Of a DNA stretch of 64,000 nucleotides, positions 867 to 59,688 are shown piece after piece. This DNA is from Minisyncoccota bacterium (lineage in GTDB: Bacteria; Patescibacteriota; Minisyncoccia; Phycocordibacterales; SBAW01). A program made the translations under genes and the position numbers. How positions within the stretch are numbered: position 1 is the stretch's first letter; each line of letters opens with the position of its first letter. A model generated the notes under the pieces. It was not told where the DNA came from. It did not search any database and saw only the letters and a list, made by a program, of their open reading frames with translations. The stretch lies in assembly GCA_035546615.1 (NCBI GenBank), contig DASZWM010000003.1:32001-96000 (forward strand). Reading direction: 5' to 3'.

Positions 867-911
867 ATAAAAGCCTAGTGATTAAGACTATACACTTAAG
901 TATACACTCGG

Positions 912-996
912 CGGAGGGTAGGAGATTCGAACTCCTGGTGGGTTGCCCCACACACGCTTTCCAAGCGTGCGCACTAGACCGCTATGCGAACCCTCC
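912..996 (-). tRNA. tRNA-Ser (anticodon GGA), type II with long variable arm
   Basis: Hand-folded cloverleaf. Acceptor GGAGGGT/ACCCTCC, anticodon stem ACGCT/AGCGT, loop TTGGAAA, a long extra arm, and T-loop TTCGAAT. Confidence 0.8.
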
Positions 997-2516: not shown

Positions 2517-3077
2517 TTAGAACTGCACCTTCACCGGCTCGCGGGCGGCGGCCTCGTCGGCGCTCAGCTCGAAATATTCTTTTTGCTCGAAATGGAAGAC
2601 GCCGGCTATCACGTTGCCGGGGAACGACTGAAGGCCGGTGTTGAGGTCGCGCACGTTGCCGTTGTAGAAGCGGCGGGCCGCCTGGATCTTGTTCTCGGTG
2701 TCGGAAAGCTCTGTCTGGAGGCCGAGGAAATTCTGGTTCGCCTTGAGGTCCGGATACGCTTCCGCGACCGCAAAGAGCGACTTCAAAGCGCCGGACAGCA
2801 TATTCTCCGCCTGGCCCTTTTCCTCGGGCCCTTGCGCGCCCATCGCGGCAGCGCGCGCCTTCGTTACGTTCTCGAACGCCTCGCGCTCGTGCGTCGCGTA
2901 TCCTTTGACGGTCTCGACAAGATTCGGGATAAGGTCGTAGCGGCGCTTGAGCTGCACATCGATATCCGCCCATGCTTCCTTAACGCGCTGCACGAGCGTG
3001 ACGAAATGGTTGTACGAGACGATAACCCAGAACACGAGCACCGCAGCAGCTGCCAGCACTATATAGAGAGGTGTCAT
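2517..3077 (-). CDS. lemA: LemA family protein
   Basis: N-terminal TM helix followed by SYNHFVTLVQRVKEAWADIDVQLKRRYDLIPNLVETVKGYATHE, which is LemA-typical. The track start at 3095 is TTG; an ATG lies at 3077. Confidence 0.85.
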   Translation of the reverse strand: MTPLYIVLAAAAVLVFWVIVSYNHFVTLVQRVKEAWADIDVQLKRRYDLIPNLVETVKGYATHEREAFENVTKARAAAMGAQGPEEKGQAENMLSGALKSLFAVAEAYPDLKANQNFLGLQTELSDTENKIQAARRFYNGNVRDLNTGLQSFPGNVIAGVFHFEQKEYFELSADEAAAREPVKVQF

Positions 3078-22141: not shown

Positions 22142-22540
22142 CTACAAAATTGAGATAACTTTCTTAACGACGGAGTCTGAAGCACTCTTGAGTCGATGTT
22201 CCCATATTCTTAATACCTTCCAATTCATACTTTTTAATTGTTTATTAACCAATCTATCTCTTTTCTTATTTCTTTCTATTTTGTTAGTCCAATATGCGCG
22301 ATTTGTCTTTGGAACTCTACAGTGAGTCTTACATCCGTGCCAAAAACAAGAGTCAATGAAAATTGCTGTCTTAGAAACAGAAAAAACAATATCAGGTCTG
22401 CCTGGCAATTTTGCCACATGAGTTGTAAACTTTAGTTTACTTTTTTTCAGTTGCTTCTGAAAAGATTTTTCTATACCTGAATTTCTACTCTTAATGAGAC
22501 GCATTATTTCGCTGCGTCTTCCAGAAGATACATTGTCCAT
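22142..22540 (-). CDS. vsr: Very short patch repair endonuclease Vsr
   Basis: FIDSCFWHGC...P.TN..YW..KI..N..RD motifs. Confidence 0.9.
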   Translation of the reverse strand: MDNVSSGRRSEIMRLIKSRNSGIEKSFQKQLKKSKLKFTTHVAKLPGRPDIVFSVSKTAIFIDSCFWHGCKTHCRVPKTNRAYWTNKIERNKKRDRLVNKQLKSMNWKVLRIWEHRLKSASDSVVKKVISIL

Positions 22541-22544
22541 GCCT

Positions 22545-23612
22545 TTATTCTTCTATATCCCAACCTGTTGGAAGTGTGATTTTGGTATAGGCTCTTTCTT
22601 TGATAAAAGGGACAATCTCTGCGCTCGAAGGAAACTCTGCGTCAAATTCTCTCGTTAAATCACTTAACAAAGTGCCAGCAAGTCGTTCTCTATATTCTTT
22701 ACTGAGGCAAAGAGTATACCAGTCATGCAAATCTTTAAGAGTAATTATTCCTTGCACACGCTCAATAATCCCGAGCTGTTGTAGCAGGGCCTCAATAGGT
22801 TTCTTTTCTGCGTCTCGACAAACAATTACAATCCTGTCCGCTTCGATTCCCTCGACAATTCCTTCGGTTACTTCAGGAGTAAGTGTAAGGTGTTTTACCT
22901 GGATAGCTGTTCCAAAATTTGCCCACATATCTAATCCCCTATCCGCCGCATTCGTTACGCCAACTCTAAAAAGGGCTGCGGGCATAGCTACTTGAGTCTT
23001 TCTGGCATCTATGCCTAAAACCATTTTTATAAAACCTTCAAAATCAGTAAGTATTTCTTTGTCTTCATTTTTAATCGAAAGGGTGATTTCCGCTTTTAAT
23101 GCTCGTACAATAGCGGAAAAAAGAGCATGCACTGCTATTTCATATATTTTATCTGTGCTTCGTCTCAAGCCAGGACTTGATGTAAAAAGTTCCACTAATT
23201 CCATTATGGAAAAAGTGTCCACTGTTGACTGTTCGATATAGTCTCTTACCCGATGAACAGATAGTAACTTATTTTGTAAAGCTTTATAAATATAAGCCTC
23301 TACTCCGCCCTTACTTGTTGTATTTATTTTTCCTAACACTGCCAATAGTTGGGGCGGCATAGCATTAGGCTCAAAGATATTATCTTGGTACTTTGCGCTA
23401 GAAGTACTGCTCCTCCCAACAAGTAAGGTGGAGACTTCATCTCTCCAACGTTTAGAGACAGAGCGATAACTTTCTAGATCAGTTAGTTCTAGCTTTTTCT
23501 TAGTTCTATGATAGAAAAGTATCTCCGCTATCTGTATAGGTTTATAGAAGTGCACTCTGGCCTTCTTTATAACTGAATCCAGAGCCGCTTTTGCTTCTTC
23601 AGCCATTGACAT
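22545..23612 (-). CDS. Putative type II restriction endonuclease (family unassigned)
   Basis: The 355-aa ORF lies between the C5-MTase and vsr and overlaps the MTase stop by 14 nt. No family was identified by eye. Confidence 0.5.
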   Translation of the reverse strand: MSMAEEAKAALDSVIKKARVHFYKPIQIAEILFYHRTKKKLELTDLESYRSVSKRWRDEVSTLLVGRSSTSSAKYQDNIFEPNAMPPQLLAVLGKINTTSKGGVEAYIYKALQNKLLSVHRVRDYIEQSTVDTFSIMELVELFTSSPGLRRSTDKIYEIAVHALFSAIVRALKAEITLSIKNEDKEILTDFEGFIKMVLGIDARKTQVAMPAALFRVGVTNAADRGLDMWANFGTAIQVKHLTLTPEVTEGIVEGIEADRIVIVCRDAEKKPIEALLQQLGIIERVQGIITLKDLHDWYTLCLSKEYRERLAGTLLSDLTREFDAEFPSSAEIVPFIKERAYTKITLPTGWDIEE

Positions 23613-24621
23613 ACGCCCGTTCTACCATATTTATGTCTTTTCCGCTAAACAATTCAGTTTGTTCAATAAAAGGAACCGGGTCTTTCGACATTGCTTCAAC
23701 CATTGCGTGGGCCACTGCTTCCATCTGAGGAACCACTACAGCATTACCAGCTTGCTTCCGGATTTGCTGGTCAGCAACAACAAATTTATATGAATCGGGA
23801 AAACCCTGTAATCTAAACATCTCTCTAGGAGTCAGTCTTCTTTCTCCATTTACAATAAGATAGTTATATGAACCATTAGCCCTAAGAGCGCATGAATAAG
23901 CATTCACGCCTAGGTTTCCAGACTTATTTTCGTGCAAGATTAACGGACGAGAATGAAGTTCTTTGTGTTGTTCTTTTAATTGTCTCTGGACTTTCTGCAA
24001 CATATAATCGCTAAGAAAGTGTTTTTTATCGACCTCATTATCAGGCTCAAGGATGTCTTCAAGAGTTTTCTTTTTTCCCCTCCCTTTGGTAGGAAATTCA
24101 AAAGGGTAGTTTTCTCTAAAACCTACAATCATTATTCGCTCTCTCTTTTGCGGAACGCCAAAATCTAGACCATTTAAAACTTTAAAGTGCACAAAATAAC
24201 CTAGTTTTCTTAAACTATTTAGAATTACTGAAAACGTCCTTCCTTGATCATGATTGGTAAGTTGTTTTACATTTTCCAAAAATAGAGCTTTTGGTTTCTT
24301 TGCCTTTAGAATTCTCTCAACATCAAAAAACAACGTGCCTCTTGTTTCAGAGAAACCTTTCATATTCCCCATGATGCTAAAAGCTTGGCATGGAAAACCG
24401 CCTGTCAAAATATCATGGTCAGGCACATCTTTTGCAACTATTTTCGTTATATCTCCATCTGGCTGGTCGCCGAAATGATTCTTATACATCTTCTGCGCAG
24501 CTTCATCCCATTCTGATGTAAAAACACATTTACCTCCTGCCGCTTCAAAACCAAGTCTAATGCCTCCAATTCCTGCAAAGAGATCGATAAAAGTAAATTT
24601 ATTCTTATTCGTTGGAGCCAT
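23599..24621 (-). CDS. dcm: DNA (cytosine-5)-methyltransferase
   Basis: Motif I FIDLFAGIGG, motif IV GGFPCQAFS, motif VI ENV, motif VIII QRRERI-like. Confidence 0.95.
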   Translation of the reverse strand: MAPTNKNKFTFIDLFAGIGGIRLGFEAAGGKCVFTSEWDEAAQKMYKNHFGDQPDGDITKIVAKDVPDHDILTGGFPCQAFSIMGNMKGFSETRGTLFFDVERILKAKKPKALFLENVKQLTNHDQGRTFSVILNSLRKLGYFVHFKVLNGLDFGVPQKRERIMIVGFRENYPFEFPTKGRGKKKTLEDILEPDNEVDKKHFLSDYMLQKVQRQLKEQHKELHSRPLILHENKSGNLGVNAYSCALRANGSYNYLIVNGERRLTPREMFRLQGFPDSYKFVVADQQIRKQAGNAVVVPQMEAVAHAMVEAMSKDPVPFIEQTELFSGKDINMVERAYVNG

Positions 24622-24851
24622 AGAGCAATATATTTTAACACCTATTTTAAGCTTGCTATATTTTTAATAATAGCACTGAAATCTATATTTATACACAATA
24701 TACACAAGTCTTGGGGATAACTTTAGTGAGGGCCGTTTTTGGTCCAGGATAGCCGTATCCGCCAGCCGATAAAAATAGAGTAAGGGGGTAAAGATCAGCA
24801 ATCGTGGGATGAGCGTGTCTAATAGTCACCTAAGGATTTATAGCCATAAGG

Positions 24852-25193
24852 CTATTGTGGCAAACCCTTAATTTTGTTTCTGAAGAAATTAAATCGCATC
24901 TTAGCATAGTCCCAAAGAAAAGAGCAGAACGACTTATTTGGATGTCTTTTTATTTCACGCAAGTTCTCGAAAGCATAATTAAGTATATCTATAAATAATA
25001 ACCCTGGTACAACACCCAATGCGAATATATACCAATCAGAAAAACGTGTTTTTAACAAACTGTAAGTCGCATTTACTGCAATTCCAAGAACTACCGCAAG
25101 CGTCGCACCGAGTATCACAAATGCCCACTGTATTTGTAGACTTCTTTCCTCTTGTAAATCACCCTTGTTCATGGCGAATATATCTAATAACAA
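24852..25193 (-). CDS. Small two-TM membrane protein (candidate effector of the Ubl/E1 module)
   Basis: Two hydrophobic helices (WAFVILGATLAVVLGIAV; WYIFALGVVPGLLFIDIL). TTG at 25193 or ATG at 25172. It lies 8 nt after the upstream stop. Confidence 0.5.
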   Translation of the reverse strand: MLLDIFAMNKGDLQEERSLQIQWAFVILGATLAVVLGIAVNATYSLLKTRFSDWYIFALGVVPGLLFIDILNYAFENLREIKRHPNKSFCSFLWDYAKMRFNFFRNKIKGLPQ

Positions 25194-25201
25194 GTAAAAA
25201 A

Positions 25202-25612
25202 TTATTCGAAGAAGCTACGCAATTGGACTAATATCCAGTTTCCAAATCGTCGCCACCATGACAGGGAGGAATGAATAAAGTATGCATCCTTGATGGTATC
25301 GTCATATTCTCGCCCGTGGCGTATCTGTTCTCGAGTCATCTTCGACGCCCAAATCACTTGATTTTCAATAATCCAATAATGTGACTGACAAGGATGATTC
25401 CAGTTTCCTATTGAAGGACGTAGCGAGACCACCCCCTGCCAATCAACTAGCGTATATTCGGTCTTACGGAGAGGGGTAACGATTTTAGTGCCACAACTGC
25501 AACAGCACAAATGGCTCGCGGTTCCGAAACGTCGTGAGATATATAGAACACCACTCTCAAGCTCTCTTGGTATGAACTCAACATATTCAGGACGCACCAA
25601 CTCTGTCTTCAT
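25202..25612 (-). CDS. Cys-rich Zn-ribbon-like protein (DUF6527-like, recalled)
   Basis: HLCCCSCGTK...NHPCQSH cluster. The ATG at 25612 overlaps the E1-like gene stop (ATGA-type coupling). Confidence 0.5.
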   Translation of the reverse strand: MKTELVRPEYVEFIPRELESGVLYISRRFGTASHLCCCSCGTKIVTPLRKTEYTLVDWQGVVSLRPSIGNWNHPCQSHYWIIENQVIWASKMTREQIRHGREYDDTIKDAYFIHSSLSWWRRFGNWILVQLRSFFE

Positions 25613-26808
25613 ATACAATCCTCTTTTGTAAGGGCGTGGGTCGCAATCGTGTACAGCGAATGACGTTCTCGCACATCATCAGCATAAAAACCACACAATT
25701 GCTTCCATTTTCCCACAGCCATGGCAGCATTTAGCATATTTAGGTCCGCAACCTGCATATTACGGTACACCGCCTCGGCCGGCACTTTTGCAAATGAAAC
25801 AACTTCCGCAATATGTCCATGATGGTCGGGTGTTCCAACTGTAAAGCGACACTGTCCGCGCAGAGACGCCTGATTATCGAGTGCCAAGTCTATTCCAACG
25901 TCTATGAACGGCACACCAAGAGCAATAAGGCCATTAAGTATGTTCTTCCGGCTCTCTCCGTCGTCGATAGCAACAAACACGAAGTCGAACCCGGACAGCT
26001 CGTGGAGATGCGCGTCCTGGACATAGTAGGGATGACGCTTCAAGCCCTTGTGTATACGTTCGTATATACCACTGAACCAATCCACTTTTAGTGGATTGTT
26101 AAGCTCCTGCTTCATCGGAGCACCCGGTGCTCTAAACGCGTTGTGGAGTTCGAACGTATCCCCATCGAAAATGTGGATTTCTTTCACCGGCGTCTTAGCA
26201 ACAAGGTCGAGAATATACGAACCAGTACCACCTAGTCCTATAATCGCCACCCGACTTGCAAGGAGTTTCGCCGTGGCCGCTCCAATACCAGCACGGGTTG
26301 TTGCCATATCAGGATAATGGAATGCGAGTTCCTGAGCTTCGACTACCGCCGGTACTGGTTTTTCACTTCGTGGATCGCAAGTCCGATCAATTGCTTGAGC
26401 TTCGTGCCAAATCAGACGAACATATGTCCAGATTTTTTCGTAGTAGTCGGCATACTTGCGCTTATCAGCGTGCACACGCGAGAAGGCGACAGTCGTCTTA
26501 ATCCCATCGCCCTTATCCTCCTCAGCGTTGTTCGAAATCATCTCCGTCATTAGTTGACCATCCGCGTTGTGCGGGGGTTCTCCAATCCACCAACACTGAT
26601 GGTTGGAACATGGATTCACTGTCTTTCCGGCCGCATCAATTTCAAGTGGGCAATAGAGAATTCCAGGCACTATTTTGCCTTCAGAGGTAACAGCAGGAAT
26701 TCCCTCAATTAAAAGATGAGAGGCAGTCCCTTGAATGACCCGGAGACGAAAACCTTCCGCCTCCAACTTTGCCAAATCGGCATTATGACTTATCCGTATT
26801 TCTGACAT
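25609..26808 (-). CDS. E1-like ThiF/MoeB-fold enzyme with ~165-aa N-terminal domain of unknown fold
   Basis: VAIIGLGGTGSYILDLVAKTPVKEIHIFDGDTFELHNAFR is a ThiF nucleotide-binding motif. The N-terminal domain has conserved-looking C/H residues (YCPLE, NPCSNHQCWW, PPHN). Confidence 0.8.
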   Translation of the reverse strand: MSEIRISHNADLAKLEAEGFRLRVIQGTASHLLIEGIPAVTSEGKIVPGILYCPLEIDAAGKTVNPCSNHQCWWIGEPPHNADGQLMTEMISNNAEEDKGDGIKTTVAFSRVHADKRKYADYYEKIWTYVRLIWHEAQAIDRTCDPRSEKPVPAVVEAQELAFHYPDMATTRAGIGAATAKLLASRVAIIGLGGTGSYILDLVAKTPVKEIHIFDGDTFELHNAFRAPGAPMKQELNNPLKVDWFSGIYERIHKGLKRHPYYVQDAHLHELSGFDFVFVAIDDGESRKNILNGLIALGVPFIDVGIDLALDNQASLRGQCRFTVGTPDHHGHIAEVVSFAKVPAEAVYRNMQVADLNMLNAAMAVGKWKQLCGFYADDVRERHSLYTIATHALTKEDCI

Positions 26809-27040
26809 CGAAGTTCATATGATCGACCACATCTACACTTTGGCCCCGGCGAAGCGATCCTTCGTGTCCACCTGGCTTAGTCCATGAAACGCTGTAGCGA
26901 ACATCGCCTCCGAACGGACCAGTTGGGAATGCGAGCTTGATGACTTGCTCGTAGCTAATATCGTGTTCACCCCACTTCTCTTGAATACCGTTCACAACAA
27001 TGCTTATGGTGTGTCCATGCCCTTTATTATCGTCTGCCAT
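26783..27040 (-). CDS. Multiubiquitin-like beta-grasp protein (85 aa, no C-terminal GG)
   Basis: ISIVVNG...ISYEQVIKLAFP...RYSVSW...GQSVDVVDHMNFDVR matches, from memory, the multiubiquitin domain pattern of prokaryotic E1/E2 operons. It overlaps the E1-like gene start by 26 nt. Confidence 0.5.
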   Translation of the reverse strand: MADDNKGHGHTISIVVNGIQEKWGEHDISYEQVIKLAFPTGPFGGDVRYSVSWTKPGGHEGSLRRGQSVDVVDHMNFDVRNTDKS

Positions 27041-27224
27041 ATAATTTTAATTGTCGGCTTTTTAATTTAAGTGCGGCACCGGTCGACCGCACTTGTATCG
27101 TACACCCATTTCTGATACCCTTGCAAGGTAACTAGATGTATCAAATGTTACCTAAAGTACCATATTTGTTATATCTGATACCTGTTGTTACAACCTATAA
27201 CAAGTTACGCACAGATTTCAAATC

Positions 27225-27584
27225 ATGAGAAAATCATCCGCTACAATAAACAATGAAAGCAGATCCACAGAGCTTGAAATCCGGAAAGAGATTGGCAGAC
27301 GTATCGCTGAAATGCGTAGCAAACTGGGGCTTACAGCTCGCCTTGTTGCCAAAGAACTTCATGTCTCACGCGAAGCCATTACTCACATTGAAACAGGGCG
27401 AAACAATATATCTGCCGTATCGCTGTGGGAATTGGCGACTCTCTTCCATTGTGATATTGCTGATTTTTTCCCTGATATTCCTAATGGATATTCTTTAACT
27501 AGGGTCGATATTAATAAAGTAGCACAAATGAGTGGAAAGACAGGGGCGGCATGGGCTGAAAAGATTTTTGGGAAAAAGAAATAA
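27225..27584 (+). CDS. XRE-family HTH transcriptional regulator (CapH/ImmR-like)
   Basis: HTH_3 signature IGRRIAEMRSKLGLTARLVAKELHVSREAITHIETGRNNIS. Confidence 0.85.
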   Translation: MRKSSATINNESRSTELEIRKEIGRRIAEMRSKLGLTARLVAKELHVSREAITHIETGRNNISAVSLWELATLFHCDIADFFPDIPNGYSLTRVDINKVAQMSGKTGAAWAEKIFGKKK

Positions 27585-27588
27585 ATAT

Positions 27589-28083
27589 ATGATGTCAGAA
27601 AGAATTGAGAAAAAAGCGGAGGAAGTCTTAAGCGCACTGAATGTTAAGTCAATACCTATCTCTGTTGAAGAAATCGCGAATCAATTAAAGATCAAGATAG
27701 GAAGAGCACCTAGTAGTGAATTTTCTGGAATGTTGATTCGAAAAGATGGTCGAGCACTTATGGGTATAAATAACAGTGAAGGCACTGCGAGACAACGATT
27801 CACTATTGCGCATGAACTTGGGCATTATTTCTTACATCCACAAAATGATACTTTTGTAGACTATAGGCAGAACGAAAAAGAACCAAGAAATCATAGAGAA
27901 CGAGAGGCTGATATGTTTGCAGCAGCACTCTTAATGCCTAGGAAAGAAGTAACAAAAGACTTTCAGAAAATTGTTAGGAAAGGATTTTCAGAAATTGAAC
28001 TTCACAAACTGGCAGGAAAATATGAAGTGAGCGACAAAGCAATGAGATTTAGGTTAGTAAACTTAAATATGCTATTAGGTTAA
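27589..28083 (+). CDS. ImmA/IrrE family Zn-metallopeptidase (CapP/ImmA-like)
   Basis: HELGHYFLH HExxH motif in the COG2856 fold context. It lies immediately downstream of the XRE gene. Confidence 0.85.
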   Translation: MMSERIEKKAEEVLSALNVKSIPISVEEIANQLKIKIGRAPSSEFSGMLIRKDGRALMGINNSEGTARQRFTIAHELGHYFLHPQNDTFVDYRQNEKEPRNHREREADMFAAALLMPRKEVTKDFQKIVRKGFSEIELHKLAGKYEVSDKAMRFRLVNLNMLLG

Positions 28084-28087
28084 GATT

Positions 28088-28348
28088 TTATTGTCTACTC
28101 CCTTGTGATCCTAATCTATCCGTAAAAGGTCCCTCACGATGGGCCGCCGGATCTACATCCTTTTTTGTAATAACCTGGGGAAAGCGGGTATTTTCTTCAA
28201 TCTGCTCTAGTAACGTGACTATTCTGTTCAATTTCCAGTACCAGGTAAGGATTTCCCTGATCAGGAGGAATATCAGAGCGCCCACGCATAGGACAAAAAC
28301 GATATTTGGTAGCTGGGACCAGTAATATTGAAATAAGGGTTGAAGCAT
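28088..28348 (-). CDS. Small membrane protein (one TM helix), downstream partner of AbrB-like gene
   Basis: IVFVLCVGALIFLLI helix. Coordinates are from the track. Confidence 0.4.
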   Translation of the reverse strand: MLQPLFQYYWSQLPNIVFVLCVGALIFLLIREILTWYWKLNRIVTLLEQIEENTRFPQVITKKDVDPAAHREGPFTDRLGSQGSRQ

Positions 28349-28351
28349 ATA

Positions 28352-28540
28352 TTACTTCTTCCAGTCGCGGATTATCAGCTTCTTTCTCTTCAGATCCACC
28401 TCTACGGTGAGCTTTTGGCGCTCTTTCCACTTGAACTTGCGGATAGCCTCCACCGGAAGCGCGACCGTATAGGTACTTCCCCGCCCCGTCTTGGTGAGCT
28501 TGCGGACCTGCTTTTTCTGCCCCGCCTTCGGCCGTGCCAT
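28352..28540 (-). CDS. AbrB/MazE/SpoVT-like small DNA-binding protein (candidate antitoxin)
   Basis: VRKLTKTGRGSTYTVALPVEAIRKFKWKERQKLTVEV resembles the looped-hinge helix fold. Confidence 0.45.
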   Translation of the reverse strand: MARPKAGQKKQVRKLTKTGRGSTYTVALPVEAIRKFKWKERQKLTVEVDLKRKKLIIRDWKK

Positions 28541-28600
28541 GCGGATATGATACCACCGAACTCCTGAGCTAACTCAAGAGTTAGCTCAGGAGTTAATTAA

Positions 28601-52429: not shown

Positions 52430-52502
52430 GCTGCCAGACTTGGATTCGAACCAAGATAAACGGATTCAGAGTCCGTTGTCCTACCATTAGACGATCTGGC
52501 AG
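52430..52502 (-). tRNA. tRNA-Gln (anticodon CTG)
   Basis: Hand-folded. Acceptor TGCCAGA/TCTGGCA, anticodon stem ACGGA/TCCGT, loop CTCTGAA, T-arm CTTGG-TTCGAAT-CCAAG. Confidence 0.75.
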
Positions 52503-54496: not shown

Positions 54497-55429
54497 TTAT
54501 ATCTGGAGGTACCGGCGCACCGCAAGGAAGCTTGCCGCGGCGCCAAGCACGATGCCCGAACCCGCGATGACGCCGAAGAACAGCGGGAAATGCGTGATGA
54601 AGTAGTTGAAGACGTTCACGCCGCCGAAGAAATTAACGGTGGCGCTCCCGAGCCACCACGTGAGCGGATACATAAGGAGGAGCGTGATGACCGCGGCTAC
54701 CAGGCCGTACAGCACGCCTTCCACCATGAACGGCGCGCGGATGTAGCTCTTGGTGGCGCCAACGAGCCGCATCACCTGTATCTCATCGCGGCTGGAGTAG
54801 ATGGCGAGCCTGAGCGTGTTAAAGGAAATGGCGATGGTCATGAGTATGAATATGACTATAACGACGAGCCCTATCCATTTGGCGGAGTCGGTTATCTGCG
54901 CGAGCCGGTCCACCGCCGCGCGGTGCTCCGCGTCGTAGTAGTTTATCTTCTCGATAATCGGCGTGGCGCCGCTCCCCAGCGCGTCCTGGTCGTTGAGGAA
55001 GCTCGCAAGACCCTCGTACTGCGTTATCTCATGCGCCTTGATGTTGAGGACCGCTCCCAGCGGATTGTCGCCGAGCTCTTCGAGGGCCTGAAGGGTCAGC
55101 TGGTCGTTCTGATGGCGCTCGCGGAAGGCGGCAAGCGCCGCTTCGCGGGTCGTGTAGGTCACCGTTTCCACTTCGGGAAGCGCCTCAAGCGAGCTCTTTA
55201 TCTCGAGTATGCGGTCCTCCGGCGCGTCGGTCGTGAAGTACACGTTCATATCGGCCTTGTCGCGGAATTCCTCGAGCGTGGAGCTCAGTATCACGCCGGT
55301 GAACATGGCCAGCCCTATGACGCACAGCGTAAAGACCATCATAAGGACGGACGCGAAGGACACGAAGCCGTTCCTCCAGAAATCGAGGAACCCCGCCCTA
55401 AACACGCGTTTTATGCTGAGCCAATTCAT
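54497..55429 (-). CDS. ftsX: Cell division permease-like protein FtsX
   Basis: FtsX topology: one TM, a periplasmic domain, then three TM. Confidence 0.9.
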   Translation of the reverse strand: MNWLSIKRVFRAGFLDFWRNGFVSFASVLMMVFTLCVIGLAMFTGVILSSTLEEFRDKADMNVYFTTDAPEDRILEIKSSLEALPEVETVTYTTREAALAAFRERHQNDQLTLQALEELGDNPLGAVLNIKAHEITQYEGLASFLNDQDALGSGATPIIEKINYYDAEHRAAVDRLAQITDSAKWIGLVVIVIFILMTIAISFNTLRLAIYSSRDEIQVMRLVGATKSYIRAPFMVEGVLYGLVAAVITLLLMYPLTWWLGSATVNFFGGVNVFNYFITHFPLFFGVIAGSGIVLGAAASFLAVRRYLQI

Positions 55430-55431
55430 AG

Positions 55432-56112
55432 TTACAGTATGTACTTCCCTTCCCGGTCGTCGCGCACGACCTTCCCGCGGTCAAGCGTTACGACGCGCTT
55501 CTTGAGGCTGTCGATGACGCCCTTGTTGTGGGTCGTGAGGATGATGGTGGTGCCGAGGTCGTTTATCTTCTTGAGTATCTGAACGACCTCGAACGTGTTG
55601 ACCGGGTCGAGGTTGCCGGTCGGCTCGTCGGCGATGATGACATCGGGCTGGTTCACTATGGCCCGCGCGATAGCGACGCGCTGCTGCTCGCCGCCGGAAA
55701 GCTCGTCGGGGAAATTGTTCATCTTCTCGCCCAGGTCTACGAGCTCGAGCACGTGCGGCACGTCGGACTGTATCTCGTCCTCGCTGCGGCCGGCCGCCTC
55801 CATGGCGAAGGCCACGTTCTCGTACGCGGTTTTCTGCGGCAGGAGGCGGAAATCCTGGAATACCGTCCCTATCTTGCGGCGCAGGTCGTTCATCCTGCGG
55901 CTGTGCACCTCGTGGACGTTGACCGACTCGAAGAATACCGAGCCGGAGGAGGGGCGCTCTTCGGCCAAGAGCATTTTGACCAGCGTGGTCTTGCCGGCGC
56001 CCGAGTGTCCGACGAGGGAGATGAATTCTCCCGGTTCGACCGAGAAACTGACGTCGTTGAGAGCAACGGAGTTATCTGCGTAGATTTTTGATACGCGGTC
56101 GTAGTAGATCAT
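55432..56112 (-). CDS. ftsE: Cell division ATP-binding protein FtsE
   Basis: Walker [18 protein letters not shown], and Walker B. Adjacent to ftsX. Confidence 0.95.
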
Positions 56113-56157
56113 GACAACCTATGTATTTTACCCCTTTAGGGGCCGATGTGCAAAAAA

Positions 56158-57015
56158 CTAGGCCAGGAAGGGGTCAAGCGCCCCTTCAAGCACGCCTTCG
56201 GCATCGCGGACCTCCACATTGGTGCGGTGGTCCTTCACTAATTTGTACGGATGAAGCACGTAGGAGCGTATCTGATTGCCCCATTCGATCTTGCCGACTG
56301 CGGTTGAAAGTTCGTCTATGCGCTCTTTGCGCTCCTCTGCCATAAAATGGAGCAGTTTCGCCTCTACTATCGCAAGCGCCTTCTCCTTGTTCGCTCCCTG
56401 CGTGCGCTCGCCGTCAACGTGCGCGGAAATGCCGGTAGGCTTATGCACGATGCGCACCGCCGTTTCGCGCTTGTTGACGTTCTGGCCGCCCGGGCCGCCG
56501 GAGCGCGCCACCGTTATTTCAAGGTCGTCTTCGGGAATATCGATATCGGACACTTTTTCCAAGACCGGCAGGACCTCCACGAGCACGAAGGACGTGTGCC
56601 GTTTGGCGGAGGCATTGAACGGCGAGATGCGCACGAGCCGATGCACGCCGTACTCGTTTTTGAGCGTGCCGTACGCGCGCTTCCCCGCTATTTCTATCGA
56701 AAGGTTGCGGTAGCCGCCGCGGTCGTTCCGGTTCTCGTGCAGCAGCTTGTAGCCCCAGCCGCGGTTTTCTATGAACTTGCGGTACATCTCAAAGAGCATG
56801 TGCGCGAAATCCTCGGCATCGTCCCCGCCCGCGCCCGCGACGATGGTGAGTATGGCGTTGCCGTTCTCGTATTTGCTGCCCCCCTCAAGCTCTGCCTTGA
56901 GGTCCTGGAGCTCTTTTATGAGATTCCGGGCCTCGGCAGGGTTGCTCCAAAAGTCCGGAGCCTGCATCGCTCCTTCTATCTCCCTGATGCGCTTTTCTAC
57001 CTCTTCTTTGGTCAT
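56158..57015 (-). CDS. prfB: Peptide chain release factor 2 (short form, 285 aa, single ORF)
   Basis: SPF and GGQ motifs. It starts at a position equivalent to just after the usual RF2 frameshift site. The ATG directly abuts the tRNA-Thr CCA end. Confidence 0.9.
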
Positions 57016-57091
57016 TGGAGCCGGAGGCCAGGATTGAACTGGCGACCCCGTCTTTACGAAAGACGTGCTCTACCAACTGAGCTACTCCGGC
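57016..57091 (-). tRNA. tRNA-Thr (anticodon CGT), CCA encoded
   Basis: GCCGGAGTAGCTCAGTTGGTAGAGCACGTCTTTCGTAAAGACGGGGTCGCCAGTTCAATCCTGGCCTCCGGCTCCA. Confidence 0.85.
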
Positions 57092-57113
57092 AAAGGAAGT
57101 CAAAGAAAATCTA

Positions 57114-57554
57114 TCATATAAGCAAACGGGCGGCAATCGCTCTTTTACTTATTGCGCGCCCTTTTCTGCCGTTTCCTTTATTGAGATTAGCATAAGTAGG
57201 ACTTAATGCGTCACAGTTCGGACAAACTAGTCTAAGATTTTCTTCTGTATTATTCTGCCAATTACCATCGATATGGTCCGCAACTAACGGCACAAGTCCG
57301 GTAACCGGATTAACTTCCGACCAACCGCACATACAACACTTATCGCCAAACTTTTCTCGCAGATAACGCTTGACCGGCCTTGAGACTATCCCCGTTACCT
57401 TTAGTCCTGTTATCTTTCCCTCTTTCCACTTTTTGATATAAGATTCGTGCTGCAATTGTGCCTGGCACTTGTTACTGCAATAGGTGTATCCAGCGCGAGC
57501 AGTCTCTGTACCACACAGAACACACGCGCTACGTGGTTTTTTAGGCATCGACAT
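57114..57554 (-). CDS. HNH endonuclease
   Basis: N-terminal Zn-ribbon (CVLCG...C..C) and an HNH core DHIDGNWQNNTEENLRLVCPNCD. ATG at 57554 or 57548 (the track has TTG at 57575). Confidence 0.8.
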   Translation of the reverse strand: MSMPKKPRSACVLCGTETARAGYTYCSNKCQAQLQHESYIKKWKEGKITGLKVTGIVSRPVKRYLREKFGDKCCMCGWSEVNPVTGLVPLVADHIDGNWQNNTEENLRLVCPNCDALSPTYANLNKGNGRKGRAISKRAIAARLLI

Positions 57555-57627
57555 ACCTACAAGAAGTATATGCAAACTGCTTATCGGTGTAAATAATTAC
57601 ATCGGAAGCAATTTACAGCATATTTTG

Positions 57628-57880
57628 AGCCGAAGGCCGGAATCGAACCGGCGACCTACTCCTTCGCTTACACCTCTTTTTTCTTTATAAGAGGGCTAGA
57701 CTGTATCTTTCTCCTGCGAACAGGAGACCCTTGTCAGTCGTTCGAGCGTCTAGGACGCTACGGTCTGGACCAGTCATGTGGCCTTTAACCGTTATTCGGG
57801 ATTCATTCCGACGTTACCGTCGGGATGGGCGGGGTCTGCGACCCACCATGGAGTTGCTCTACCATCTGAGCTACTTCGGC
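57628..57880 (-). tRNA. tRNA-Thr (anticodon GGT) interrupted by a ~180-nt intervening sequence in the anticodon loop
   Basis: The 5' half GCCGAAGTAGCTCAGATGGTAGAGCAACTCCATGGT lies at 57880..57845. The 3' half AAGGAGTAGGTCGCCGGTTCGATTCCGGCCTTCGGCT lies at 57664..57628. The acceptor, anticodon and T stems all pair across the insertion. Confidence 0.55.
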
Positions 57881-58520: not shown

Positions 58521-58576
58521 ATAAACATGGTTATTGCTAATGGCGCCCTGTCTTATCAGTATAGACCCTCTTTTTG

Positions 58577-58651
58577 CGCGAGAGACGGGACTTGAACCCG
58601 CAACCTCTTCCGTGACAGGGAAGCGCTCTAACCAAATTGAGCTACTCCCGC
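58577..58651 (-). tRNA. tRNA-Asp (anticodon GTC)
   Basis: GCGGGAGTAGCTCAATTTGGTTAGAGCGCTTCCCTGTCACGGAAGAGGTTGCGGGTTCAAGTCCCGTCTCTCGCG. Confidence 0.85.
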
Positions 58652-58795
58652 ATATACTATGCGGACACAGGCTATTCTAGCCGAAAAATGCTGATTTTCC
58701 AAGATAGCGAGGAAATCGGCTTCTAGGCGTGAGGCTTGCAAGTTCTTACGGTCCATCCTCAAGGAGGGACCTCGGCCGCACATGCTGCGCATTTG

Positions 58796-58869
58796 TGTCG
58801 GCGGAAGGACTTGCACCTTCGACCTTGGGTTTATGAGTCCCATGCTCTAACTACCTGAGCTACGCCGAC
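58796..58869 (-). tRNA. tRNA-Met (anticodon CAT; elongator or Ile2-type, G1-C72)
   Basis: GTCGGCGTAGCTCAGGTAGTTAGAGCATGGGACTCATAAACCCAAGGTCGAAGGTGCAAGTCCTTCCGCCGACA. Confidence 0.8.
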
Positions 58870-59615: not shown

Positions 59616-59687
59616 CGCGGGGTGGAGCAGTAGTAGCTCGCAAGGCTCATAACCTTGAGGTCGCAGGTGCAAGTCCTGCCCCCGCAA
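59616..59687 (+). tRNA. Initiator tRNA-fMet (anticodon CAT, C1-A72 mismatch)
   Basis: CGCGGGGTGGAGCAGTAGTAGCTCGCAAGGCTCATAACCTTGAGGTCGCAGGTGCAAGTCCTGCCCCCGCAA. The unpaired 1-72 position is the initiator hallmark. Confidence 0.75.
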
Positions 59688-59688
59688 C

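Follow-up and report, generated by a model that had tools for sequence, protein, structure and literature searches.

Bacterial leaderless mRNAs are thought to come from transcription initiation or, controversially, from cleavage by toxins. In Escherichia coli, tRNA genes are co-transcribed with a translation factor gene in the thrU-tyrU-glyT-thrT-tufB operon, in which a spacer of about 100 nucleotides (nt) with a Shine-Dalgarno (SD) sequence precedes tufB. A minority of bacteria is said, in an account ascribed to Baranov et al. from 2002, to be naturally without the programmed frameshift in prfB, the gene of release factor 2 (RF2), so that loss of this frameshift is not in itself new. Leaderless mRNAs defined by a promoter occur in Mycobacterium (PMC4633059) and Streptomyces (PMC4681348), and in mitochondria tRNA excision defines leaderless mRNAs, the tRNA punctuation of Ojala, Montoya and Attardi (1981), as cited in PMC4633059. 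The nearest prokaryotic precedents are the E. coli tRNA-tufB operon and tRNA-snoRNA co-transcripts of archaea, which RNase Z cleaves (PMC4247193). Here we analysed a stretch of 64,000 nt (hereafter the window) from a Minisyncoccota bacterium (assembly GCA_035546615.1, contig DASZWM010000003.1, positions 32,001 to 96,000), in which a short prfB starts immediately after the 3' end of a tRNA-Thr(CGU) gene, a junction that recurs in related genomes. We consider it probable, at roughly three chances in five, that this prfB is co-transcribed with the tRNA and that endonucleolytic maturation of the tRNA 3' end makes a leaderless or near-leaderless prfB mRNA.

The tRNA-Thr(CGU) gene is 76 nt long (57016..57091, minus strand; called by ARAGORN and matched by Rfam RF00005 at 65.9 bits) and encodes its own CCA at 57018..57016, its 3' end reading ...GGCTCCA (CCTCCGGCTCCA). 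The RF2 start codon, an ATG at 57013..57015 (minus strand), follows A76 of the tRNA with a spacer of 0 nt according to the window sequence and the ARAGORN call, so that neither a promoter nor a terminator fits between the two. The 20 nt 5' of this ATG, formed by the G+C-rich T-arm and acceptor strand, contain no SD-like motif (CCTCC is present, not GGAGG), and neither a promoter scan nor a search for -10 boxes could place a -10 box 5' of it. An earlier start is not available either: the 18 open codons upstream, bounded by an in-frame TAG within the tRNA, hold no ATG, GTG or TTG. When tRNA and mRNA are folded together, the centroid structure retains the cloverleaf and leaves the A-rich start region mostly unpaired. 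The initial annotation, which was made from the window alone, had claimed that the CCA of this tRNA (57016) abuts the ATG at 57015 without an SD sequence, and this was borne out by ARAGORN, Rfam and the sequence itself. Its scope needed correction, since the junction is not particular to one genome but clade-wide, and of its wording "leaderless or near-leaderless" the second term is the safer one, as in relatives the start codon lies 1-5 nt after the discriminator.

The gene behind this junction (56158..57015, minus strand) encodes a protein of 285 amino acids (aa) without the +1 frameshift segment, and its identity as RF2, as first annotated, is well established. Pfam finds PF03462 (PCRF, 8.6e-42) and PF00472 (RF-1, 3.9e-33), and prfB is by far the best NCBIfam family (TIGR00020, 342 bits, with RF1 at 220 bits), while the protein stays below the cut-offs for PrfH (TIGR03072, 88 vs 166.65 bits) and ArfB (44 vs 100 bits). 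The best matches among solved structures in the PDB are RF2 chains, at about 1e-68. By sequence and homologue alignment, the SPF motif for stop-codon recognition lies at residues 131-133 (56617..56625, minus strand) and the GGQ motif for peptidyl-tRNA hydrolysis at residues 176-178 (56482..56490, minus strand). The 120 best homologues listed all have lengths of 269-317 aa, share 76-100% identity with the window protein and come mostly from Paceibacteria, Adlerbacteria and Kaiserbacteria assemblies; GGQ is present in 120/120 of them and an SPF...TSF pattern in 113/120. We take the gene for the housekeeping prfB of a member of Paceibacteria, within the candidate phyla radiation, and its form for a derived one that a large clade has in common. 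A tblastn search found no second release factor-like gene within the window. In 53 of these 113 close homologues, Gln replaces the His of the RHTSF segment that follows SPF, a residue that we take to be near-universal in class I release factors and to contact the stop codon; the window protein keeps it (His140). Two metagenome contigs (L114 and L197) hold RF1-like open reading frames (ORFs) of 255-267 aa that have no SPF and begin about 20 residues before (V/L)RAG(A/V)GG, and are thus without essentially all of domain 1.

That the window RF2 also lacks part of domain 1, another claim of the initial annotation, was confirmed by profile coverage, alignment and structure prediction. The PCRF match is restricted to profile positions 87-194 of 194, the C-terminal half. 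In TIGR00020, residues 48-284 correspond to profile positions 112-348, and the score of 342 bits falls under the curated cut-off of 370 because the domain-1 segment is missing. Against the 366-aa RF2 of Bacillus subtilis, two overlapping local alignments were obtained, pairing residues 4-48 with 27-71 and residues 27-284 with 100-357; in the second, B. subtilis residues 100-121 align within what remains of domain 1 in the window protein. By arithmetic, about 23 N-terminal, about 50 internal domain-1 and about 9 C-terminal residues are missing relative to B. subtilis RF2. This remnant comprises residues 1-44 (56884..57015, minus strand), and the AlphaFold2 model (mean predicted local distance difference test score 69, 72-84 at the N-terminus) shows just two helices, 3-17 and 26-44, ahead of the first domain-2 strand. 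As modelled, the helical bundle of canonical domain 1 is replaced by these two helices.

The junction was then looked for in relatives. A scan of species-representative genomes returned 80 loci (L001-L080), among which L001-L044, with 53-85% identity, carry the short RF2 (L042, a fragment, is not counted). Including the window, 9/44 sequences from representative genomes show the adjacency. In the eight others (L004, L005, L007, L009, L013, L019, L025 and L029), RF2 starts 0-2 nt past the tRNA-Thr(CGU) end called by ARAGORN, with ATG or GTG and with differing bases at the junction. Metagenomes were scanned with a pattern consisting of the tRNA T-loop and acceptor followed 56-86 nt on by codons for DFW; this pattern detects spacers only up to about 33 nt, so that the frequency of adjacency is better judged from the representative genomes. 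Pooling metagenome and genome loci gave 77 distinct junctions (ARAGORN assigned 73 to Thr(CGU) and 3 to Thr(GGU)), a juxtaposition that is beyond chance and whose diverse N-terminal sequences imply that many species share it. The start codon lies 1-33 nt after the N73 discriminator, and in 44/77 junctions within 1-5 nt: 1 nt in 10 junctions, 2 nt in 6, 3 nt in 8 (as in the window, where these are CCA), 4 nt in 17 (mostly CCAN) and 5 nt in 3. A second group of 19 junctions has A/T-rich spacers of 6-11 nt without SD, 3 junctions have 14-16 nt, and 11 have 23-33 nt, several of these longer spacers holding TGnTATACT about 7 nt before the ATG.

In the RF2 tree, read for ingroup topology only, tRNA-adjacent states are scattered among promoter-type states within the clade of L001-L030. 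One locus (L002) carries a 250-nt insertion (2708..2995) with the final 19 nt of the tRNA repeated directly on either side (ATCCCGGCCTCCGGCTCAA), and the downstream copy of the tRNA 3' end still abuts the GTG of prfB. This points to an old junction that was later disrupted. The insertion resembles the footprint of an element integrated at a tRNA 3' end. In eight other loci (L006, L008, L012, L015, L017, L018, L027 and L030), a gene of 150-220 aa on the opposite strand, NUDIX-hydrolase-like as judged by eye from a motif, stands between tRNA-Thr(CGU) and prfB. There prfB has its own leaderless-type promoter, with the exceptions of L017, which is SD-led, and L030, in which no box was found.

Tight spacing between tRNA and coding sequence is essentially confined to prfB. 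Genome-wide tRNA punctuation was considered and rejected, as abutting ORFs were not above control offsets among the 326 other tRNAs in the loci. Individual cases were noted: a 378-aa rarA-like ORF in L028 (1861) whose ATG overlaps the CCA of tRNA-Thr(CGU), an ORF in L046 (5994) 2 nt past the discriminator of tRNA-Gln, and, taking L046, L193 and L170 together, ORFs 1-2 nt past discriminators of tRNA-Gln or tRNA-Asp. A link between an encoded CCA and prfB adjacency was likewise discarded, since about half of the tRNA-Thr(CGU) genes encode CCA either way.

The orthologues without an adjacent tRNA indicate how prfB is likely to be started in this clade. In 22/33 of these short-RF2 loci a TANNNT hexamer, in most cases TATACT and often with the TG extension, ends 5-9 nt ahead of the start codon (for example tgcTATACTcacctctATG in L015 and TATAATccaataATG in L041). 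Only 3/33 have an SD-like tetramer, among which L017 looks genuinely SD-led. Over the window and 43 orthologous loci, 39/44 sequences show no SD-like motif within 18 nt upstream, the exceptions being L017, L022 and L026, together with L002 and L003, which by eye are not free of one. Since the orthologues have a -10 box 5-9 nt before the start and mostly no SD, we predict that prfB is leaderless in the short-RF2 clade. The same build is seen elsewhere in the window, where 20/61 confidently coding ORFs have a -10 box 5-9 nt ahead of the start, against 1/61 at control positions within genes, and about 10 of the coding ORFs show an SD-like motif; many internal operon genes are also without SD. Starts with a TATAnT box include those at 1919, 17657, 19988, 35573, 47443 and 50974 (minus strand). 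The organism thus appears to use leaderless initiation widely, for about a third of its genes. In the literature covered, which was incomplete, we found no report of leaderless usage in Patescibacteria. In every tRNA-adjacent locus the TANNNT hexamer is absent from the region 3-12 nt upstream of the start, which is occupied by the G+C-rich acceptor strand. With no -10 box placeable in these loci, only cleavage at the tRNA 3' end could give an equivalent 5' end.

The neighbouring Parcubacteria show where this start codon came from. More distant loci of our scan (L045-L048, L050-L052, L055 and L063, including Ryanbacteria and Sungbacteria) carry a canonical +1 frameshift prfB, with a frame-0 ORF of 21-23 codons that ends in ...DRL-CTT TGA C (...DCL in L050) and a +1 frame that reads D(V/L/I)..K...(I/L)..(I/L/V)E..(M/T)...(D/G/N)FW. 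Several of these loci retain the tRNA-prfB synteny, with tRNA-Thr(CGU) 40-90 nt 5' of prfB, and the frameshift-type relatives are likewise leaderless in build (for example tggTATACTgtgttttATG in L051). When window and frameshift-type sequences are aligned on the FW motif, Met1 of the window protein takes the position of the CUU codon and Thr2 that of the first codon of the +1 frame. The statement that the ORF begins just after the old frameshift site is therefore exact, and the absence of the frame-0 segment and of the CUU-UGA site follows from the in-frame TAG in the tRNA and the lack of an upstream start. The inferred loss of autoregulation by frameshifting is supported as well, as neighbouring Parcubacteria keep the frameshift and the short clade starts where the +1 frame begins. 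An upstream segment with a slippery site in another frame, which the initial annotation allowed that it might have missed, was searched for in all frames and no usable one was found. A CTTTGAC that had escaped the first reading does lie 8 nt 5' of the tRNA (57105..57099), and was rejected as a hidden shift site: the ORF that it terminates has 5 codons, it does not share the frame of RF2 and is not conserved, and the +1 frame after it hits a TAA in the anticodon loop of the tRNA. Among 77 related loci, 5 have a CTTTGA in the 200 nt upstream, at scattered positions and at about the rate expected by chance.

In the frameshift-type loci L045-L048, L050-L052 and L055, no SD-like stimulator was seen 5' of CTT TGA C. 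A hairpin ends about 4-6 nt before the CTT and is kept by compensatory changes (TCCGCGggttCGCGGA, GTCCGCgatgtgGCGGAC, TCCGTCgcgaGACGGA, GTCCACgcgcttGTGGAC, CGGCTAAAacaTTTAGCCG); this structure may stimulate +1 frameshifting.

A history consistent with these observations would start from an ancestral order that neighbouring Parcubacteria still show: tRNA-Thr(CGU) followed by a short spacer containing a -10 box, then a frame-0 ORF of about 22 codons with a leaderless start, CUU UGA C and the +1 frame. The derived clade would have lost the shift site along with the frame-0 segment, most of domain 1 would have been deleted, and in many members a new start codon would have arisen 1-5 nt past the discriminator of tRNA-Thr. 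There the tRNA transcript would have prfB, probably with ftsE and ftsX behind it, as its 3' trailer; in the window, transcription would perhaps start from a TTTACA-17-TATACT site (57593..57565) ahead of an upstream HNH-like ORF or from a site with a -10 box only, closer to the tRNA. A 3'-processing endonuclease, probably of RNase Z type, would cut within N73-A76 and release an mRNA with its 5' end at the AUG or 1-4 nt before it; this trailer, 5'-(0-4 nt)AUG, might then be translated by the leaderless pathway. Synthesis of RF2 would thus be tied to transcription and processing of a tRNA, not to UGA-dependent frameshifting. The sequences show the anatomy of the locus and how it is conserved, the leaderless-type promoters of orthologues and the frameshift kept by relatives; co-transcription, the cleavage enzyme with its cut site and 5'-end-dependent initiation are the steps that we infer, and comparative evidence gives strong indirect support to the suggestion of the initial annotation that tRNA 3' processing generates the mRNA 5' end.

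The choice of an RNase Z-type enzyme rests on the tRNA genes of the clade, most of which do not encode CCA. Five of the six tRNA genes first called in the window are without it and all six have C74 (those besides tRNA-Thr(CGU) being at 910..996, 52430..52501, 58576..58651, 58795..58869 and 59616..59688). In the clade loci, CCA is encoded in 79/315 tRNA genes (236/315 are without) and C74 is present in 310/315, a bias which hints that the 3'-processing or CCA-adding system uses or leaves C74. With most tRNA genes lacking CCA, trimming to N73/C74 and CCA addition are expected to be obligatory. In CCA-less precursors RNase Z cuts at or next to the discriminator and the CCA-adding enzyme completes the end.

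Several points weigh against tRNA maturation as the source of the prfB 5' end. An encoded CCA, as in the window, inhibits RNase Z of the B. subtilis type, so that cleavage may be less direct, although the enzyme of Thermotoga cuts after CCA. The spacer is not fixed, with 1-5 nt in one group and 6-11 nt in a second; this would also fit SD-independent internal initiation, and a strict 5'-terminal AUG is thus not required in all lineages. The lack of enrichment of abutting ORFs at other tRNAs argues against punctuation as a genome-wide principle, and the -10 evidence consists of motif matches, not of mapped transcription starts. Finally, a processed 5'-monophosphate end would be a substrate of RNase J, which genomes of the Candidate Phyla Radiation (CPR) retain (PMC12641178).

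Some of this evidence would suit an account in which RF2 is translated from an unprocessed or slowly processed tRNA-mRNA fusion, by internal SD-less initiation on the A-rich, unstructured start region, with the tRNA acting as a 5' stabiliser or standby platform that is freed only when the mRNA decays from 3' to 5'. The A/T-rich SD-less spacers of 6-14 nt in 22/77 junctions show that an exact 5' AUG is not universal, the start region is mostly unpaired in the centroid fold, and SD-less genes within operons are common in the window, all of which speak for such a fusion, as does the finding that PNPase and RNase J are the conserved RNases of CPR genomes (PMC12641178). The -10 box 5-9 nt before the same start in orthologues, however, implies recognition of a 5'-terminal start, and internal initiation leaves unexplained the peak of 1-5 nt spacing (44/77 junctions). 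Moreover, the tRNA must be freed to function, and removal of a trailer of about 2.5 kb by exonucleases alone would be costly. We therefore hold translation from the fusion to be rather unlikely.

It is improbable that a promoter within the tRNA gene starts a primary leaderless transcript at or near the ATG, independently of tRNA processing. Leaderless promoters are usual for prfB in relatives and a TTCAAT is present in the T-loop, which would favor this possibility; but this hexamer has no -11 A, is 17 nt away from the ATG and is TTCGAT in several relatives, the promoter scan shows nothing there, and no TANNNT stands 3-12 nt upstream in any tRNA-adjacent locus. Cleavage at the tRNA 3' end remains our preferred source of the prfB 5' end.

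The use of stop codons bears on whether this RF2 is still needed. Of the stops of the 61 window ORFs judged coding, 35 are TAA, 23 TAG and 3 TGA, in a sequence of 57% G+C in which TGA is the commonest of the three stop trinucleotides overall. Over the short-RF2 clade (L001-L044 and L081-L200), by counts that rest on crude gene calls, TGA ends 50/426 ORFs and TAG 122/426; the frameshift-type Parcubacteria loci use TGA more (12/38 ORFs, Fisher p = 0.002). This suggests a termination dominated by RF1 in the short-RF2 clade. One could then imagine a decaying, dispensable RF2 that is tolerated because UGA stops are rare, with an odd start that is incidental. The scarcity of TGA (3/61 window genes, 50/426 clade ORFs), the truncated domain 1 and the TIGR00020 score under the cut-off all fit this, and yet about 120 positions, among them SPF, GGQ and the core around these motifs, do not vary in the 32-sequence RF2 alignment, and homologues are 75-85% identical. 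In addition, the ORF is intact in all loci examined, and UGA is still a stop and not a sense codon, long ORFs being intact under table 11. Decay is thus very improbable. A true start at the internal Met17, preceded by GAAGGAG and leaving codons 1-16 as an untranslated leader, is least credible of all: GGAG does stand just 5' of the codon-17 ATG in the window and Met17 is conserved, but a mere 2 nt separate that SD-like motif from the ATG and relatives do not keep it (gaagcagcgATG, gaggcggctATG), Met17 is conserved in RF2 irrespective of any role as a start, and this start is in effect ruled out because residues 4-16 align to canonical RF2 and codons 2-20 diverge as coding sequence does (pairwise divergence of 0.39/0.29/0.57 at positions 1/2/3, i.e. 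3 > 1 > 2).

A broader proposal, which we regard as tentative and on balance doubtful, is that maturation of tRNA-Thr forms the RF2 mRNA 5' end clade-wide and replaces the UGA-sensing frameshift, within a wider remodelling of termination possibly on the way to UGA reassignment. The remodelling invoked would comprise the minimised domain 1, a UGA nearly abandoned for UAA and UAG, and, in many members, the change from His to Gln beside the codon reader. If this were true, the clade would offer a bacterial counterpart to mitochondrial tRNA punctuation on an essential translation factor, and its state could be an intermediate towards the UGA reassignment and RF2 loss of other CPR lineages.

Downstream of prfB, the window carries ftsE, encoding an ABC ATPase (55432..56112, minus strand; Pfam ABC_tran), 45 nt 3' of prfB, and the permease gene ftsX (54497..55429, minus strand; Pfam FtsX_ECD and FtsX) 2 nt after ftsE. 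The prfB-ftsE-ftsX neighbourhood is presumably also that of Firmicutes. No terminator-like site was found on the minus strand between prfB and ftsE, where a weak promoter-like site lies at 56154..56125, and ftsE is probably in the same transcription unit as prfB.

Upstream, an HNH-like ORF of 153 codons (57114..57575, minus strand; a weak Pfam HNH_3 match, E 8e-4, below the cut-off) lies between two tRNA-Thr genes that in relatives are often only 0-40 nt apart. Its G+C content at third codon positions (GC3) is 0.40, vs about 0.8 in host genes, and it is probably a free-standing mobile endonuclease. The best promoter-like site upstream is TTTACA-17-TATACT (57565..57593, minus strand), which matches the consensus, its only support, at 10/12 positions; the first in-frame ATG of the HNH-like ORF (57554) comes 10 nt after the -10 box. 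Transcription of this ORF would read into tRNA-Thr(CGU) and prfB, which makes the site a candidate start of an HNH-tRNA-prfB transcript.

The second tRNA gene, tRNA-Thr(GGU), is the syntenic partner of tRNA-Thr(CGU) and is split after U36 by an intron (gene 57628..57880, minus strand; intron 57844..57665, 180 nt; found with aragorn -i), the orthologue in L002 being unsplit. Default ARAGORN and Rfam searches miss the split tRNA, and no Rfam group I model matched at E up to 1. Homologues of this intron were seen in 12 other loci, and 15 base pairs covary. The intron carries R/S-like elements of a group I core (CGAACGACTGACAAGG, AAGATACAGTCTAG), is preceded by a U at the 5' splice site and ends in G, and thus resembles a member of an unusually compact group I family in tRNA-Thr genes of Paceibacteria. 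Further away, a low-G+C island (22142..28556) holds several ORFs of 113-399 aa with GC3 of about 0.3-0.45, vs about 0.8 elsewhere, and was probably acquired horizontally.

If our reading of the junction is correct, bacteria can set a translatable 5' end by tRNA processing, and do so on an essential gene. Sister species would reach the same leaderless start either by a promoter or by a tRNA end, which offers a natural comparison of initiation on 5'-triphosphate and 5'-monophosphate mRNAs. The data also record the stepwise loss of the prfB frameshift, a classic recoding event. A naturally minimised RF2 without most of domain 1 would be useful for asking what this domain does, and the low use of UGA bears on how stop-codon reassignment begins. 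Standard annotation gives a vague label here, the identical protein being merely a "PCRF domain-containing protein" at NCBI, and overlooks intron-split tRNAs beside prfB. Neither a short RF2 of this kind nor a bacterial mRNA 5' end set by a tRNA 3' end was found described in the literature, the coverage of which was incomplete, so that absence is no proof.

Compared with the canonical frameshift prfB of E. coli, B. subtilis and neighbouring Parcubacteria such as L051 and L052, the window gene shares the core of domains 2-4 with SPF and GGQ and, with the frameshift-type Parcubacteria, the tRNA-Thr(CGU)-prfB synteny. It differs in having no frame-0 segment and no CUU UGA C, and is thus without RF2-sensing autoregulation; its protein is about 80 residues shorter than canonical RF2 and its ORF starts at the old shift site. 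With prfB genes that are naturally frameshift-less it has in common a single uninterrupted ORF. To our knowledge those genes encode full-length RF2 from an SD-led start, whereas the window gene has lost its N-terminal part instead of fusing it in frame and has a start of leaderless type. In PrfH and ArfB, domain 1 is lost or reduced and GGQ kept, as in the window RF2, which also keeps SPF and domain 2, and whose gene has ftsE and ftsX as neighbours, not rtcB. The E. coli tufB operon likewise has a translation factor gene 3' of tRNA-Thr, whereas in the window the spacer is zero. The leaderless mRNAs of Actinobacteria and Deinococcus have no SD, a 5' ATG or GTG and a -10 box about 7 nt upstream, as do the orthologues that have no tRNA beside them and about a third of the window genes; for the prfB of the window, the 5' end would instead come from RNA processing and carry a monophosphate, not a triphosphate. 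As in mitochondria, the ORF opens at the tRNA end or a few nt from it and excision of the tRNA would leave a leaderless mRNA, but here this would take place in a bacterial genome of free-living type, with a tRNA on the 5' side only, on essentially one gene and through enzymes that are presumed.

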